From an uncultured Puniceicoccaceae bacterium (lineage in GTDB: Bacteria; Verrucomicrobiota; Verrucomicrobiia; Opitutales; Oceanipulchritudinaceae): a stretch of DNA of 64,000 bases. A model generated the notes under the pieces. It did no database searches, was not told where the DNA came from, and saw only the letters and a list, made by a program, of their open reading frames with translations. A program made the position numbers and the translations under genes. The DNA lies in the NCBI GenBank assembly GCA_963933835.1, contig CAWVVV010000002.1, positions 256,001 through 320,000 on the forward strand, in the 5' to 3' direction. Below, in pieces: positions 44,178 to 55,716 of the stretch; the stretch's first letter is position 1; every line of letters begins with the position of its first letter.

Positions 44178-45095
44178 TTACGCCTCGTCTCGTATGATGA
44201 GATCGAAGGGGATGAATTGCTCGACCCCGTTGACTGAGAATTGAGCCCAGACTCGGTATTCGCCGGGCTCCTCGACGGAAAAGCGAAACTCCAGTCGCGG
44301 GTCTGCTGGGTCCGGAGCGACGCCGGGCAGTGCGGTCGGGTGAAAGTGTGCGAAGCCAGTGCGGTCTGAACTGAAGGCGACGAGGTGGGCGTAGGCATCC
44401 ATGACCGGGTCGAGGGTCAGGCTTTCGTCGCCTTCGAGCGGATTGATTTCTAAGGTCAGTTCGATTGTTTCCCCGACGACGAGCTTGGATTCGGGGTAGT
44501 TCAACTTGGCGGGAAATGGCAGTGCCTCGATCGATGTCGCCGCGGTTTCAGATCCCTGTGCTGCTTCGACTTGAAATGAGCCGGCAAGGAGCGTGCGCTT
44601 GGCCGTCTTCAGCGGAATGAAATCGAGATAGAAGTCGTAGCTACCTGCGCGCTGCGGGGTGTGGGTAAAGTGATAGCTGCCGAGAGCACCGCCATCGACC
44701 GGATGGAGGTGCTGGTAGTCCGCCAAGGCGTCGTCGATGATCATGGCGTGAATCCGCTCAGTATGGCTCACCGCGATGTCTTCGTAGGCCAGAGGACGCC
44801 CCGTCGAGGTCGCGAGCTGGAGGACGAAGGTCGTTTCCTCGCCGACCCGGGGCGTGCTGAGCGCTTCTAGCTTAAGCGCGACTGGATACTTCAGCTCGTC
44901 GAGATCGAAGAAGCCAACTTCCTCGATTCCGCAGCCTTCAATCACGCCGGCATCATTGATGTAGGCGCCATAGTGAACGACTTCACAGGCTTCGACGGGA
45001 ATCGAGCGCAGGCCTACGTAGGCGCCAAGGCAGGCGCTGGTCAGAACGAAGGTGGTGATCCACTGGCTTTTTGAAAACACAGCGCAATCACACAC
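44178..45095 (-). CDS. Membrane-anchored protein with two His-motif Ig-like (YtkA/FixH-like) repeats, putative metal binding
   Basis: HAMIIDDALADYQHLHP and HLVAFSSDRTGFAHFHP; PGEYRVWAQF. Confidence 0.7.
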   Translation of the reverse strand: MCDCAVFSKSQWITTFVLTSACLGAYVGLRSIPVEACEVVHYGAYINDAGVIEGCGIEEVGFFDLDELKYPVALKLEALSTPRVGEETTFVLQLATSTGRPLAYEDIAVSHTERIHAMIIDDALADYQHLHPVDGGALGSYHFTHTPQRAGSYDFYLDFIPLKTAKRTLLAGSFQVEAAQGSETAATSIEALPFPAKLNYPESKLVVGETIELTLEINPLEGDESLTLDPVMDAYAHLVAFSSDRTGFAHFHPTALPGVAPDPADPRLEFRFSVEEPGEYRVWAQFSVNGVEQFIPFDLIIRDEA

Positions 45096-45154
45096 GATAC
45101 AGGGTGTAGATCAAGCCACACAGCTCGATTTGGGCTGAAAAAGTGGCGTAACGG

Positions 45155-45520
45155 CTATTTCTGTGCCGCTTTGAAGACGCGTCGAGCGAGGCCAATGAGA
45201 CGGCGCCCCGAAACACGGGCTTTAAGGCTCTCCCGCATCATGAAGCCATTGACGTATTTGTGCTGGTAGAAATCCACGTCCCCTCGCACATCGGATATTG
45301 AGATTTTATCCCCCGCTTGCTTGATCAGGAGGTATTCTGCGAAGAAGCTTTCGGGCCGCATTGGTCGAACCAAAGCTCGGAGAAAACGCGCATGCCAGAA
45401 CAGCGTTTGTCTGAGGACGCGTGGTTCAAATTCGTCCACCGAGCAGTCGTAGACTTTGCAATACGCGGTCCTGAAATCGATTTGATTTTCAGAAAGGTAA
45501 GCTGCAGCGGTGTTCGACAT
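45155..45520 (-). CDS. Hypothetical protein
   Basis: 121 aa ORF filling the space, same strand as neighbours. Confidence 0.6.
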   Translation of the reverse strand: MSNTAAAYLSENQIDFRTAYCKVYDCSVDEFEPRVLRQTLFWHARFLRALVRPMRPESFFAEYLLIKQAGDKISISDVRGDVDFYQHKYVNGFMMRESLKARVSGRRLIGLARRVFKAAQK

Positions 45521-49832: not shown

Positions 49833-49956
49833 GCACTTTTTATGGGATGAAAGGCGATGAGCGCCCTCTATTCCATTGAAATGTCCGCGTTGAAACGCGG
49901 TTGCGTCGCAGCGGTAGCTACACCAGTATAATCCTAATTTTTTACGTCTAGCCTCT

Positions 49957-50466
49957 ATGCATCAGCTGATAGAAGACAACCTCACCTGCCTCGAGCAAGG
50001 CATCCAGTTTCTTGGATGCTTGCCTGCTGAGCTCTACACGACGCCTAGTACGGTGTGTTTTGGTAGCGCAATCGGAGGTCATTTTCGACATAACATTGAT
50101 CACTACCAGCAGCTCCTCGACGGGATCGCGAAGGGCCGCGTGAACTATGATGCTCGCTCGCGAGATATCGAAGTGGAAACGCAGATCTCGGTGGCGATCG
50201 GCGCGCTTTGGTCGCTCAAGGGTGGGCTTTCCGCCCTCACGATTGAAGCCGACGACGGGACCGCGCTCGAAGTCATCATGGATGGCGGGGTTGAGGCGCA
50301 ATCCACGCGTTCCAGCCTTTCGCGCGAACTCCAGTTTCTCATCAGCCACACGATTCACCACTACGCCTTGATCGTGACGATCTCGCAGACCCAAGACTTT
50401 GCTGAATTTCCGGCTGATTTTGGGGTGGCTCCTTCGACGCTGAAGTTTCGCTCCCAATCAGCTTAA
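49957..50466 (+). CDS. DinB/YfiT-superfamily protein
   Basis: IGGHFRHNIDHY, NYDARSR, RELQFLISHTIHHYALI, FGVAPST; TATAAT at 49927. Confidence 0.88.
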   Translation: MHQLIEDNLTCLEQGIQFLGCLPAELYTTPSTVCFGSAIGGHFRHNIDHYQQLLDGIAKGRVNYDARSRDIEVETQISVAIGALWSLKGGLSALTIEADDGTALEVIMDGGVEAQSTRSSLSRELQFLISHTIHHYALIVTISQTQDFAEFPADFGVAPSTLKFRSQSA

Positions 50467-50469
50467 GCG

Positions 50470-51201
50470 ATGTGCACCGTTTCTTGGTCTATAGAAAAGG
50501 GCGGATATTGCCTATTCTTCAATCGCGATGAGCAGCTTACGCGCGCACCCGCTGAGGCGCCCATAGAGTGGGCCGATGAGGCAGGCATATTCTACGGCCC
50601 TAAAGATCCGGTCGGCCGCGGAACGTGGATTGGGGTTAATCCTCAGGGATGGACCTCCGCTGTCTTGAATTATTACGACGCGACTATCGAAGGGCTTGAG
50701 AAGCGCCCAAAGAGTCGAGGCGAATTGGTCAGGTCATTGGCACCGTTGACGGATAACCGACTTGTCAAAGCGGCGCTTTCGAAGCTGGCGAAGAAGGACT
50801 TCGCACCCTTTCACTTTTTGCGGGTTTCGCCCACCGGCGAGGGGAGCCTTTGGACCTCAAATGGCAAGAAATTGAGTGCGTCTGTCGTCGCGACGGAAAG
50901 CCTCCCGCTCACGACGTCTTCGGTCGATACCGAGCGGGTGACCGAGCGGCGCAAGGCGATCTATTCCTCCCTGAATGCGGGGGGCGCTACGTCGGCCGAT
51001 TCTCTGAAGATGTTTCACCGCTATTTTGATACTTCTGATCCCGCAGCGAGCGTGAGCATGCGCCGCGAAGATGCAGAAACGGTCAGCCTGTCTGAGATTT
51101 TCGTGAAGGCGAAGCTGATCACGTTCGACTACCACGAACGAGCAGATGAAGGCACGGGGTTTAAGTCGCCGGTTAGCCTGAAGATTCAACGGATCAAATA
51201 G
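50470..51201 (+). CDS. NRDE/TANGO2 family protein
   Basis: MCTVSW, FNRDE, PKDPVGRGTWIG, SRGELV, TVS. Confidence 0.92.
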   Translation: MCTVSWSIEKGGYCLFFNRDEQLTRAPAEAPIEWADEAGIFYGPKDPVGRGTWIGVNPQGWTSAVLNYYDATIEGLEKRPKSRGELVRSLAPLTDNRLVKAALSKLAKKDFAPFHFLRVSPTGEGSLWTSNGKKLSASVVATESLPLTTSSVDTERVTERRKAIYSSLNAGGATSADSLKMFHRYFDTSDPAASVSMRREDAETVSLSEIFVKAKLITFDYHERADEGTGFKSPVSLKIQRIK

Positions 51202-51211
51202 AGCCGCGCGG

Positions 51212-53806
51212 ATGAGATCGATTTGTCGCTGGGTTTGGGTCCTGTATTTCCTCCTCCTGGCAGCCTCTTATCTTGGGCAATGGATCGTATCTGACACCTC
51301 AGCGCTTCCGTCGGGTATGCAAATCTTCGAGGTGCCCGAGCGCTTAGCATCCGGAGAACGAACAGGCCGCTTGATCAAGATGGCCACCTACACGAGTGGG
51401 CCCGATGAAGGACCCACGCTCGTTCTGATCCACGGTAGCCCCGTCGCTTCATCGGCGATGCGAGGCCTCAAGCGTGAATTGGAGAAGGCTCTGCCCGATT
51501 GGAGAATCCTTGTCCCGGACATGCCGGGGCTGGGCGCATCAACGAGCGAAGTAACAGACTACTCGGTCGCGGCGCATGGCTACGCTGTCCTAGATCTGCT
51601 CGATGCGCTCGACGTAGAAGAGGCTCACCTCTTGGGCTACAGCATGGGCGGAGGCGTCATCCTTGAGGTCTCCCGGATCGCGCCGGATCGCATTGATTCA
51701 TTGATCATGGCGTCGGCAATCGGCGTTCAAGCGTATGAGCTTTTTGGATCCTATGAGCTGAACCATTCGGTGCACTGGATGCAGTGGGCCGCGCTGAAAG
51801 GCATCGATCTGCTCGTCCCGCATTTTGGATTCTTCGAGAAGCAGCCCCTGGATTTAGGCTACGCGCGTAACTTTTTGTATACGGATCAAAGACCCCTGAG
51901 CGAGGCACTCAAAAGCTACGTCGGCCCGATGCTCATCCATCATGGCCGGGCGGATAACTTGATCCCGATCCAAGCGGCAAAGGAACACGCCCGCCTCGTG
52001 CCTCAAGCCGAGTTAGAACTCTTCGATGGCGGCCACCTCGATGTGATTTCAAATCCGATGCGCTATGTGGCCCTGTTCGCCGATTTCGTTGCTCGTGCTG
52101 AGGCGGGTGAAGCGACCCTTCGAGCTGAAGCAAGCGCCGAGCGTATCAATGCTGCGGATCAGCCTTTTGTCAGGGACCGCAGTTGGCACTACGAGGGGTT
52201 AGCGCTCTTTATCGTCATCAGTCTCCTCATGGCTGCGACGATGGTCTCGGAAGACCTGACTTGTATTGGCGGAGGCTTACTCGCGGCCAATGGTTTGATT
52301 TCACTCCCAGCAGCCGTTATCGCGTGCTTCCTCGGCATCTTTATTGGCGATCTACTGCTCTACACGGCGGGGAGATCTCTGGGTCGGAGCGCGCTTTCTC
52401 GGAGACCAATGCGCTGGTTCGTTCGCCCAGAGGCTGAGAAACGCGCCGAGGCTTGGTTCGCGCGGCGCGGCGCGGTCATCATCTTGGTCTCTCGGGTTTT
52501 GCCCGGGACGAGGGCGGCGACCTATTTTACCGCGGGCGTGCTGAAGGCTCCTCTTGGACGCTTTCTCCTTTTCTTTGGGGTCGCGGCCGCGATCTGGACA
52601 CCGCTTCTTGTCGGAGGCGCCAGCTTGATCGGGGAGCAGATGCTCAGAGTCTATGCTTCATACGAGGCCTATGCGCTCCCGCTTCTATTGGCGACGGGCT
52701 TATGTCTGTATCTGATCATTGGATACGGAATACCTGCCTTGAGTTGGGGCGGGCGAAGACTGCTTTTGGGTAAATGGAGGCGCTGTACACGCTGGGAGTA
52801 TTGGCCGCTCTGGCTGGTGAATGCACCGGTGTTTATCTACGTCTTGTGGCTTGTCCTTATTCGCTACCGCAAGCCGATGATCTTCACCCTTTCGAATCCC
52901 GGGATGCCGCACGGCGGGTTCATCGGCGAAAGCAAGGGGGATATCTTAGCGAGTATGCCAACCTTTGCCTCACATGTCATCCCATGGGACCGGTGTCCCG
53001 TAGGTGAACCGCTGGATGAGAGAATGGAACGGCTGCGTGCGATTCAGTCGAAGGGTCAGCCTTGGCCAATCGTGATCAAGCCCGACGAGGGTCAGCGTGG
53101 TCTTGGGGTGAGAATTGTTAAATCGGAAGAGGAGGCAAAGGAGACGCTTGGCCACTTGGATGAATCCCTCGTTCTCCAAGAGTTCGTCGATGGCCCTGAG
53201 TATGGAGTATTCTACTACAGGTATCCTGAGGCTGAAAAAGGAGTGATCTCTTCGATCACAATCAAGCAATTGACCTCTGTGACGGGTGATGGGGAGCGAT
53301 CGCTTGAAGATCTTATTTTGGCCGATGATCGCACTGTAGATCGAGCTACCTATTTCCTTGATCAGATGTCTGATGCACTTCTTGAGGTGCCAAAGTTAGG
53401 TGAGCGAGTGCCGTTGGTTGAGCTTGGGACACACTCTCGGGGTGCGACTTTTTTGGATGGAGCTCACTTATTGACAGACGAGCTGCTTGAGGCAGTTGAA
53501 AAGATTTCGCGCTCGTATGAGGGATTCTACTACGGGCGCTTCGACTTTAAGGCACCATCAGAAGTTGCCCTTCGCGCAGGGCAGGGCCTAAAAATGATTG
53601 AGTTGAATGGTCTGACGTCAGAGCCGACCCACATTTACGCGCCGGGTGCGTCGCTCTTCACGGGGTGGAAGACACTCATGATCCATTGGCACATCGCGAT
53701 TCGAATCGGGATGCAGAATGAACGGGCAGGGATGAAGCCGTCGGCAGTGAAGGACTTTATTCACTGGTGGTGGCTGAGCTATCACCGCCAGAAAAACAAG
53801 GGCTAA
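51212..53806 (+). CDS. Fusion of alpha/beta-hydrolase, DedA/VTT and ATP-grasp domains
   Basis: HGSP, GYSMGG, D (RADNL), H (GGHL); SEDLTCIGGG, GDLLLY, SRVLPGTR; WEYWP, IKPDEGQRGLGV, LQEFV, GRFDFK, IELNG. Confidence 0.88.
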   Translation: MRSICRWVWVLYFLLLAASYLGQWIVSDTSALPSGMQIFEVPERLASGERTGRLIKMATYTSGPDEGPTLVLIHGSPVASSAMRGLKRELEKALPDWRILVPDMPGLGASTSEVTDYSVAAHGYAVLDLLDALDVEEAHLLGYSMGGGVILEVSRIAPDRIDSLIMASAIGVQAYELFGSYELNHSVHWMQWAALKGIDLLVPHFGFFEKQPLDLGYARNFLYTDQRPLSEALKSYVGPMLIHHGRADNLIPIQAAKEHARLVPQAELELFDGGHLDVISNPMRYVALFADFVARAEAGEATLRAEASAERINAADQPFVRDRSWHYEGLALFIVISLLMAATMVSEDLTCIGGGLLAANGLISLPAAVIACFLGIFIGDLLLYTAGRSLGRSALSRRPMRWFVRPEAEKRAEAWFARRGAVIILVSRVLPGTRAATYFTAGVLKAPLGRFLLFFGVAAAIWTPLLVGGASLIGEQMLRVYASYEAYALPLLLATGLCLYLIIGYGIPALSWGGRRLLLGKWRRCTRWEYWPLWLVNAPVFIYVLWLVLIRYRKPMIFTLSNPGMPHGGFIGESKGDILASMPTFASHVIPWDRCPVGEPLDERMERLRAIQSKGQPWPIVIKPDEGQRGLGVRIVKSEEEAKETLGHLDESLVLQEFVDGPEYGVFYYRYPEAEKGVISSITIKQLTSVTGDGERSLEDLILADDRTVDRATYFLDQMSDALLEVPKLGERVPLVELGTHSRGATFLDGAHLLTDELLEAVEKISRSYEGFYYGRFDFKAPSEVALRAGQGLKMIELNGLTSEPTHIYAPGASLFTGWKTLMIHWHIAIRIGMQNERAGMKPSAVKDFIHWWWLSYHRQKNKG

Positions 53807-54893
53807 GGAAAGATGCCACGCAGCTGTTTTGCTTTCGCGACGCGCTTGATCCCAAGGGTTTGAGCGGCTTCTCGCCGGGTTAGCCCTAAGCGCTCTTTTT
53901 GGTCTTCGACTTCAGCTCGGGCTTTGTCGAGGAGATCGAAGAGTCTTTGTAGAACCTTCTCGCGGGACCAAAAAAGGCTTTGCAAGCCTTGGACCCATTC
54001 AAAGTAAGAGACGATGACGCCGCCGCTGTTGCAGAGGACATCGGGGATGATCTCGATGTCGCCGCGCTCTTCGATGATCTTGTCTGCTTCGGTTGTGGTG
54101 GGTCCGTTGGCAGCTTCGGCAAGAAAGCGGCAGTTTAGCTTGGGTGCGTTGTCTGCATCAATCACTCGCTCGAGAGCGGCCGGGACGAGGACGGTACACT
54201 TGAGGAGAAGAAGTTCTTCATTCGTGATCGACTCGGCACCTTCGTAGTCTTTGAGAGACCCATACGTATTGACGTGCCGGAGGGCATCGTGGACATCGAT
54301 CCCTTTTGGATTATGGAATGCGCCTGAGACGTAGCTGATACCGATGACGCGATAACCGTAGTCAACAAAACCAAGTGCGGCATTTGAGCCGACATTTCCG
54401 AATCCTTGAATCACGACGCGCGTTTGGACAGGTCGGATACGGTGGCTTTCAAGGTAGCGTTTCACGATATAGGCGACCCCGCGACCCGTCGCTTCTTCGC
54501 GTCCTTCTGAGCCACCAATTTCAATCGGTTTACCGGTTACGATCGCTGGCGTTGAGCAGCCGATGATGTTCGAGTAAGTATCCATCATCCACGCCATGGT
54601 CTGTGGATTTGTGCCGAGGTCGGGTGCCATGATGTCGACGTTGGGGCCAACAAAAGGTAAGACCTCCTGCATGTAGCGGCGGGCGACGCGTTCGCTTTCC
54701 CTCAGGCTGAGTGCTCGGGGATCGATCGCAACACCCCCTTTGGCTCCACCGTAGGGGAGACCGACGAGGGCGCATTTCCAACTCATCCACATCGCGAGAG
54801 CCCCAACTTCACCAACCGTTACGGCAGGGTGAAATCGGACGCCGCCCTTGGTTGGCCCGAGGGCGAGATGATGCTGCACGCGATAGGCCTCCA
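53803..54893 (-). pseudogene. gdhA: Glu/Leu/Phe/Val dehydrogenase lacking its N-terminal region
   Basis: YRVQHH, GPTKGGVRF, GGAKGG, GREEATGRG, QGFGNVG, EAANGP, GGVIVSYFEW; homology starts abruptly at EAYRVQ. Confidence 0.85.
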
Positions 54894-55716
54894 GGCAACT
54901 GCTGAGCGTAATGGCTTTCGAGTACACATAGCGAATGATGCATCAAAGGCCGAAGCGGCTCTTAAAGAAGGTGTTAAGCCGGATATTGTTTGGGTCGCGG
55001 CGGAGCTTGGGGATGATGATGGCTATGAAGTCCTTGAGAAGCTAAGATCATTAGATGATTTTGATAAGCTTCCTGCACTCGTTCTGACGTCTGCTTTTCA
55101 GACCAAGAACAGAGAGCAAGCTTCAAACGATGCACTGAGTTTACTCTTAGCGAAGCCTGCAAATCACCTTGTTCTTGAAGCGGGCTGCGAGGCTCTCCTC
55201 TTTGCAGATGGCCGCAAGATGAACGAGTCAGATCATCAAGAAGAGGCTCCGTCATTAGAGCTCGATGACGAAGATTTAATTGAGGCGAAGGTACGAGCTG
55301 CTTTAACAAATTCTAACAGGCGCAGATTAACCAAGAGCCCATTCGTTGATTACAAAACGTATCTGCCCTTGGATGTGCTCTTAGCGGATTCCCATCGTGC
55401 TCGTGGCGCGACGACTCGACGGGTCCTGAAGCATTTTAATAAGGCAACCAAGGTAGTTCAGAGTGCAAACGAAGTTCTTGATTCATTGGAGAATGCCTCT
55501 TTCGATTTGGTCATACTATCGCATCCCTTGCTCGGATCTGAAGTGAGTCAAGTGACACGTCTAATCCACTAGAAATTGCCTGAAGGTCGCCGGCCAGTGA
55601 TTGTGTCGATGGGGATTGATTACCCTGAAGACTCCGTCGAGGCAGGCATCGATGACCATTTGAGGCTGCCGCTTTCTGTTTCGGCGCTAGGGCTACGCCT
55701 GATTAAGAAGGCGTAG
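54888..55716 (+). pseudogene. Two-receiver-domain signalling protein fragment (5' end missing; in-frame TAG at 55570-55572)
   Basis: REC-like PDIVWV...DGYEVL...LLAKP; second REC LDVLLAD...FDLVIL; read-through gives RPVIVSM...EAGIDDHLRLP. Confidence 0.7.

Follow-up and report, generated by a model that had tools for sequence, protein, structure and literature searches.

We studied three consecutive genes in a 64,000-nucleotide window of DNA from an uncultured marine Puniceicoccaceae bacterium (GenBank assembly GCA_963933835.1, contig CAWVVV010000002.1, positions 256,001 to 320,000 of the forward strand), which lies on contig G000:C2 of a 1.94 Mb genome that is 97% complete. The genes encode a DinB-like protein, a TANGO2/NRDE protein and a fusion of an alpha/beta-hydrolase, a DedA membrane domain and an ATP-grasp ligase, and in four phyla their relatives adjoin genes for predicted synthases of amino-acid lipids. 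They belong to a module that is real, widespread and apparently undescribed, and that is most likely a system for aminolipid tailoring with transport. With about even confidence, we propose that this conserved module lengthens an amino-acid lipid at its head group, moves the lipid across the inner membrane and turns it over.

The three genes form an operon of plus-strand open reading frames (ORFs) at 49957-50466, 50470-51201 and 51212-53806, separated by 3 and 10 nt, whose products (169, 243 and 864 aa) have their catalytic residues intact. A preliminary description of the window had claimed these gaps together with an intact hydrolase triad, intact ATP-grasp motifs, the NRDE Cys2 and the DinB His ligands, and had supposed that hydrolase and ligase lie on opposite faces of the membrane; the ORF coordinates, the residues and the predicted topology, each given below, agree with it. 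Contigs of a second study span 50481-52496 and 52498-53671 with zero differing letters and zero indels, and the triple fusion is widespread in relatives, which together rule out an assembly chimera. The base composition gave no sign of a recent horizontal arrival of the operon (GC content 0.56 vs 0.57/0.55; GC at third codon positions 0.63-0.65 vs 0.66-0.69).

The ligase family counts 1075 representatives at 50% identity (E up to 1e-30); the closest named relative is an Opitutales record at 60% identity, and the best carriers of the gene run are marine metagenomes. Ligase-positive genomes number 17/41 in the bacterium's own order (strong matches, one additional genome at 2.6e-4 being left uncounted), 60/251 in Bacteroidota, 14/401 in Pseudomonadota and 17/151 in Acidobacteriota. 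We read 94 loci, with about 7 kb on each side: 20 from Verrucomicrobiota (omitting two short contigs, L022 and L031), 42 from Bacteroidota (41 of the 60 positive genomes and L025, with 16 of the 32 fusions), all 14 from Pseudomonadota and 18 from Acidobacteriota. The earlier interpretation had been tied to the three genes occurring together in other genomes and to the triple fusion recurring in relatives. The fusion does recur widely, and the ligase has both DinB and NRDE beside it in 16/20 Verrucomicrobiota, 16/42 Bacteroidota, 8/14 Pseudomonadota and 7/18 Acidobacteriota loci. A GNAT of OlsB/OlsF type lies nearby in 16/42 Bacteroidota, 10/14 Pseudomonadota and 12/18 Acidobacteriota loci, and among DedA-fused ligases outside Verrucomicrobiota such a gene adjoins 28 of 30 (16/16 in Bacteroidota, 11/13 in Acidobacteriota, 1/1 in Pseudomonadota). 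These neighbour synthases find their best matches in the OlsB, OlsA and OlsF models, under the equivalog cut-offs. The complete set of OlsB, DinB, NRDE and triple fusion stands together at L030, L079 and L139, and L121-L129 carry a single operon with the order DedA-ligase-DinB-NRDE-YHS-OlsF. In a quick tree, the ligase studied here falls in a Verrucomicrobiota clade among fusion-type ligases, and deeper branches lack resolution.

Within the own order, a PF13444 match was present in 17/17 genomes with the ligase and in 12/24 without it (41 genomes; Fisher p 4e-4), and in 22/23 genomes that have at least one of the three genes vs 7/18 with none (Fisher p 1e-4); because kin are not independent, both p values are overstated. 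Six genomes of the order have DinB without a ligase match, and in four of them DinB runs directly into an OlsF-like gene, with NRDE between the two at L154:5938-9096, L155:2585-5710 and L158:1-1881 (the last ending at a contig edge) and without it at L156:6183-8271; L159 and L162 have no adjoining synthase. DinB and TANGO2 are therefore tied to the synthase even where the ligase is missing. The OlsF-like proteins tested from these ligase-free runs have diverged (245-254 bits vs 414-432); the amino acid that they acylate may be a different one. Some of the runs have redoxin, AhpD-like and extracytoplasmic function (ECF) sigma genes close by. The genomic link to OlsB/OlsF thus described holds for relatives; in the genome studied here a synthase is present but unlinked, an OlsF-like gene on G000:C4 encoding 624 aa (414 bits vs a cut-off of 620). 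It is directly preceded by a gene for a redoxin (AhpC/TSA-like) whose N-terminus resembles a signal segment (G000:C4:136127-136830; L168:5128-5830); this gene shifts frame after about 135 codons and is either broken or misassembled. G002, of the same genus and 91% complete, gave no ligase, NRDE, DinB or PF13444 match; a joint loss of module and PF13444 is possible there.

The ligase domain (52739-53803, plus strand) belongs to an unnamed family marked by WE[YF]WP...NP...GESK and is predicted to be cytoplasmic and membrane-attached. Fold and ATP/Mg residues are those of an ATP-grasp carboxylate-amine ligase, and amide formation is predicted: the domain is modelled with a predicted local distance difference test (pLDDT) score of 90.3, and its top structure matches are all ATP-grasp (Z up to 14.3, root-mean-square deviation 3.8 over 224). 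The key residues are K623, E663, K685, H741, R776, D778, E797, N799 and E804. K623 and D778 are kept in 93/93 sequences and R776, E797 and N799 in 90/93 each; the conserved residues, including the family-specific N562, K575, K685, H741 and E804, are found in 85-93 of 93. We presume for the KP lysine, R-x-D and E-x-N the roles they have in the Ddl/GshB mechanism. The Pfam ATP-grasp_3/RimK match remains below cut-off (8e-4), and an Atlas search returned only unnamed or RimK-minority clusters. Among solved structures, the best sequence matches are cyanophycin synthetase (1.7e-10, profile 106-310) and GshAB, a ranking with which Foldseek agrees, GshF being the second structural match. With the cyanophycin synthetase G-domain and GshF the ligase shares these matches and a VxGDG lid insertion; it differs in its 13-19% structural identity, an N-terminal WE[YF]WP/NP/GESK region of its own, a membrane helix, a Ddl-like R-x-D, a Lys where CphA aligns an Arg, and the DedA fusion. 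A full cyanophycin synthetase or GshF was rejected, as neither the domain set nor the family cut-off is reached: against TIGR02068 (cyanophycin synthetase) the ligase scores 21.3 bits vs 850, and the ATP-grasp part alone aligns. At two Opitutales records (L031, L032) the ligase domain is divided between two ORFs.

The ligase is carried by a three-domain membrane protein (51212-53806, plus strand; mean pLDDT 90.9, predicted template modelling score 0.72), which begins with a membrane anchor at residues about 7-25 (51230-51286), preceded by basic residues that predict an inner N-terminus. The alpha/beta-hydrolase that follows (about 50-297; 51359-52102) has the triad S144-D248-H275, an esterase-like fold that matches 4uhd (TMt 0.77), a Pfam Abhydrolase_1 match of 1.5e-25 from residue 68, and a predicted periplasmic location. 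The S-D-H triad is present in 52/71 full-length proteins. We regard this domain as accessory or optional because it is absent from 8/20 Verrucomicrobiota loci and the nucleophile Ser is kept in 22/38 fused domains from genomes. In a Bacteroidota clade (L080-L087, L089-L094) with the order OlsB-OlsA-(DinB)-fusion, the hydrolase triad is lost and the locus lacks NRDE; most of these loci have a separate alpha/beta-hydrolase gene, upstream and divergent.

The DedA/VTT domain (about 327-509; 52190-52738) matches VTT_dom at 1.1e-16 (355-468; 61.8 bits vs a cut-off of 33.9) and has a lipid-transporter-like acidic and arginine pocket in which E347, D348, D380 and R428 are conserved in 62/62 and R434 in 61/62 proteins; lipid scrambling is predicted from it. 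With the DedA transporters UptA and PetA it shares the VTT domain and two arginines six apart (R428/R434; R112/R118 in UptA), but it lies far below the UptA model cut-off (60.8 vs 250 bits) and is fused between two enzymes. The membrane segment at the N-terminus is present in 56 of the 71 full-length proteins, and in their alignment the number of Lys and Arg is 2.2 at the N-terminus, 7.8 in the 388-420 loop, 6.4 at 510-530 and 1.2 in the 474-488 loop. Because the N-terminus, 388-420 and 510-530 are basic and 474-488 is not, the hydrolase is predicted outside and the ligase inside, a prediction that presumes the re-entrant topology published for the DedA proteins UptA and PetA. MprF works from aminoacyl-tRNA and forms an ester on a phospholipid, unlike the present protein with its ATP-grasp and predicted amide. 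What MprF and DedA-MprF fusions have in common with it is a lipid-modifying enzyme joined to a lipid transporter (PMC10193950). DedA proteins are described there as moving lipids and being fused to lipid enzymes, and the fusions named (PMC10193950, 10.1101/2022.02.03.479048) are with an MprF-type synthase, a phospholipid synthase, PLD and PAP2, with no ATP-grasp among these.

Gene 2 (50470-51201, plus strand) encodes a TANGO2/NRDE protein of 243 aa that is a predicted cysteine Ntn-type amidase. It exceeds the Pfam TANGO2 (PF05742) cut-off (60.9 bits vs 22.6; 2.8e-16), starts without a signal segment and has Cys2 and N18-R19-D20-E21, with C2 conserved in 45/48 and R19, D20 and E21 in 48/48 homologs each. 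Aligned to 8sv7, its C2, N-R-D-E, R25, N67 and R83 match C2, N25-E28, R32, N75 and R88 of human TANGO2, R19 and D20 being the equivalents of human R26/D27. The alignment stops at human residue 131; the N157/K166 region is unaligned, and the conserved S150, R161 and R199 are candidate equivalents. The Pfam family, Cys2, N-R-D-E and the equivalents of R32/N75/R88 are common to this protein, human TANGO2 and Shewanella HtpA, from which it differs in being distant (profile E 7e-8, about half of the chain) and in sitting in a lipid-enzyme operon. Residue roles in the comparison with cysteine Ntn-hydrolases were taken from PMC13044924, where TANGO2 is likened to bile-salt hydrolase, acid ceramidase and NAAA and an amidase activity of the human protein is proposed, not demonstrated.

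Gene 1 (49957-50466, plus strand) encodes a protein of 169 aa which, to judge from predicted models, belongs to the DinB superfamily, with a four-helix fold and a putative three-His metal site (His45/His131/His135, with His134). The protein itself has no Pfam match, including to DinB/DinB_2, and a weak match to structure 3dka (E 0.03); its homologs match Pfam DinB_2/DinB. Its nearest Atlas clusters are DinB by features (0.95) and by predicted structure (TM 0.93), with structure matches to DinB clusters at TM 0.87-0.94 between models that are predicted on both sides. H45 is conserved in 62/63 and H131, H134 and H135 in 63/63 each. The protein begins without a signal segment. DinB-family proteins include thiol S-transferases.

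From folds, residues and co-occurrence, which are observed, we infer the substrates, reactions and transport of the proposed pathway. The unlinked OlsF-like enzyme, recognised by its family match, would produce an amino-acid lipid of acyloxyacyl type whose carboxyl stays free. The cytoplasmic, membrane-attached ATP-grasp would phosphorylate this carboxyl and join a second amine, perhaps an amino acid or a taurine-like compound; DedA, with its conserved pocket, would scramble the resulting anionic lipid, and the optional periplasmic esterase could remove or move an ester-linked acyl chain. Cytoplasmic NRDE would hydrolyse an amide in the lipid, either to reverse the extension or to turn the lipid over, and DinB, the weakest step, would provide or alter the amine, which might be a sulfur compound. 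In support of the proposed extension, the ligase is nearest to GshF and the G-domain of cyanophycin synthetase, both of which build onto a terminal carboxyl. Ornithine lipid is reported to receive taurine on its carboxyl in an ATP-dependent reaction to which no gene is assigned (PMC12971839). The module thus resembles OlsB/OlsA, OlsF and cerilipin tailoring in its genomic partner and in a predicted chemistry of an ATP-requiring amide on the head-group carboxyl; it differs in that none of its three genes encodes an acyltransferase, hydroxylase or methylase and that the cerilipin enzyme is without an assigned gene. The idea of lipid amidation and flipping in the preliminary description has thereby gained a concrete partner, the OlsB/OlsF-type synthases. 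Its action of NRDE after flipping was dropped, since the protein starts without a signal segment, and its substrate, reaction and transport direction remain predictions.

A narrower form of the proposal, which we put forward only tentatively, is that the ligase is the gene family of the orphan cerilipin-type head-group extension of aminolipids, a redox-controlled synthase-flippase that makes and exports lipids headed by a dipeptide or a sulfonate, bacterial TANGO2 being the reversing amidase. If so, TANGO2 proteins would be defined as N-acyl-amino-acid amidases.

Several observations weigh against the link to aminolipids. No synthase lies near any of the 20 Verrucomicrobiota ligases, the present one included, nor near the stand-alone ligases of Bacteroidota (0/26 loci), which form a long-branch clade in the quick tree (support 100). 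Among the genomes with the latter, a strong PF13444 match is present in 13/27 and missing in 14/27, compared with 32/32 fusion genomes and 55/191 in the background, and an OlsF-model search of 11 of those 14 gave no GNAT-half match. The idea that the module is confined to aminolipid-capable genomes thus holds for Opitutales ligases (17/17) but fails for the stand-alone Bacteroidota forms. Of five plasmid copies examined among 29 records, those of Komagataeibacter, Azospirillum, Paracoccus and Salinivibrio have no synthase nearby and that of Variovorax does. Because the loci cluster in few clades, the 16 Bacteroidota fusions mostly in one and 8 of the Pseudomonadota loci in another, the locus counts overstate independence. 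The VIA structural ranking ties ArgX/LysX, CphA, RimK and Ddl (Z 14.3-13.3), and the redox-type neighbours (YHS selenoprotein family, DoxX, redoxin, DM13) are unaccounted for. On a Komagataeibacter plasmid (L149:5079-8011), a distant member of the ligase family is arranged divergently with genes for a methyltransferase and a heme-oxygenase-like iron enzyme; in these acetic acid bacteria the small-molecule setting is a different one.

The stand-alone ligases in genomes without detected OlsB/OlsF would fit salvage or alternative synthesis, in which the periplasmic esterase strips aminolipids, DedA imports the lyso-lipid or fatty acid, NRDE hydrolyses the amide, and a free (3-hydroxy) fatty acid, once activated by the ATP-grasp, is joined by it to the amino group of an amino acid with no need of acyl-ACP, replacing OlsB. 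In Opitutales, DinB-NRDE precede a ligase or an OlsF-like gene as though the two were interchangeable; DedA is non-directional; and it is reported that an ATP-grasp turns fatty acids into acyl-histidines and that no gene is assigned to the N-acylation in the synthesis of the sulfur aminolipid SAL (PMC11631085). We nevertheless consider this explanation unlikely: the OlsB/OlsF adjoining 28/30 fused ligases are already capable of N-acylation, and the nearest solved ligase relatives extend peptide carboxyls.

The company of the stand-alone Bacteroidota ligases (YHS, DoxX, LysE, redoxin, DM13 and ECF/Crp regulators) suggests instead a module for redox stress whose product, made or recycled, is a soluble thiol or a sulfur-containing peptide, with a GshF-like ligase, DinB as thiol S-transferase, NRDE as amidase and the synthase as a merely co-regulated neighbour. 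YHS (seleno)proteins occur in 15/42 Bacteroidota and 9/14 Pseudomonadota loci and DoxX in 13/42 and 4/14, redoxin, AhpD-like, DM13, ECF sigma and Crp genes are further neighbours, and the structural match to GshF points the same way. A soluble product is however at odds with a DedA fused or adjacent to the ligase in 20/20 Verrucomicrobiota, 15/18 Acidobacteriota and 11/14 Pseudomonadota loci and with the hydrophobic helix 532-550 that the ligase keeps, and the explanation fits best the long-branch clade, not the present copy; we rate it somewhat lower than salvage. In the genome studied here the usual redox neighbours are scattered: YHS (seleno)protein-family genes lie at G000:C6:45896-46405 and C1:257085-257585, and a DM13/glutamate-synthase-like/DoxX cluster lies at C2:148478-151100, away from the operon.

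It is very improbable that the ligase is the missing serine-adding enzyme for the glycine lipid (flavolipin, lipid 654): the chemistry fits and the serine-ligating gene is described as unidentified (PMC12746155), but only 1/14 sampled Bacteroidota genomes with GlsB over the cut-off has the ligase, which is therefore not the general flavolipin serine ligase and was rejected as such. Hardly credible, finally, are unrelated jobs for a D-Ala-D-Ala ligase and a heme-carrying TANGO2, suggested by the RefSeq Ddl label on the Salinivibrio and Komagataeibacter copies and by work on HtpA in heme trafficking (PMC10470608), since heme binding to TANGO2 is reported to be nonspecific (PMC13044924), Cys2 and the NRDE residues are kept, and the ligase, which the preliminary description had left open as a plain D-Ala-D-Ala ligase, is excluded from that class by its absence from the 7 TIGR01205 (Ddl model) matches in the genome, the lack of a Ddl Pfam match in the fusion protein, the alignment of Ddl sequences over only about 60-100 positions of its profile, and a full-length Ddl-like gene found elsewhere (C5:61712; model positions 1-317; 223.5 bits).

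A literature search of mostly openly accessible papers returned no publication on this module among the top-ranked results; a paper on a thiohistidine-dipeptide ATP-grasp was set aside, as it deals with other gene clusters (PMC13674229). Aminolipid synthases are estimated to occur in about half of sequenced bacteria, and the genes for head-group extension with taurine or serine are described as unassigned (PMC12971839, PMC12746155); the present ligases form a large family often mislabelled D-Ala-D-Ala ligase. TANGO2 underlies a lethal childhood disorder, its function being disputed among heme carrier, acyl-CoA binder (attributed in PMC11867700) and amidase (PMC13044924, PMC10470608, PMC11867700). 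A TANGO2 gene beside an N-acyl-amino-acid synthase names a directly assayable substrate class and offers a bacterial test of what TANGO2 cuts.

The TATAAT box claimed ahead of the operon exists as a hexamer (49927-49932, plus strand), 24 nt before the first ATG, and is at most a possible -10 element: no -35 element is properly spaced, the closest -35-like hexamer lying at a distance of 20 nt, a sigma-70 scan of the window does not list the site, and 19/251 TATAAT hexamers of the genome fall 10-120 nt upstream of an ORF. A sigma-70 promoter is thus unsupported. No upstream motif common to the operon, OlsF, YHS, DoxX and the DinB genes of relatives was seen by eye, without a motif finder. Two RNA runs of one study gave five short contigs on DinB/NRDE, one of them across the junction, and no contig on the ligase gene; such contigs cannot show transcription. 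Elsewhere in the window, two minus-strand ORFs without a Pfam match (305 and 121 aa; 44178-45520) precede a gene whose sequence resembles DUF420. The operon itself is bordered by rlmD on one side and by a convergent gdh on the other. This glutamate dehydrogenase ORF (53803-54927, minus strand) shares 4 nt with the end of the fusion gene, matches its family only from model position about 51-78 and has stops in the upstream frames, so that it looks 5'-truncated.

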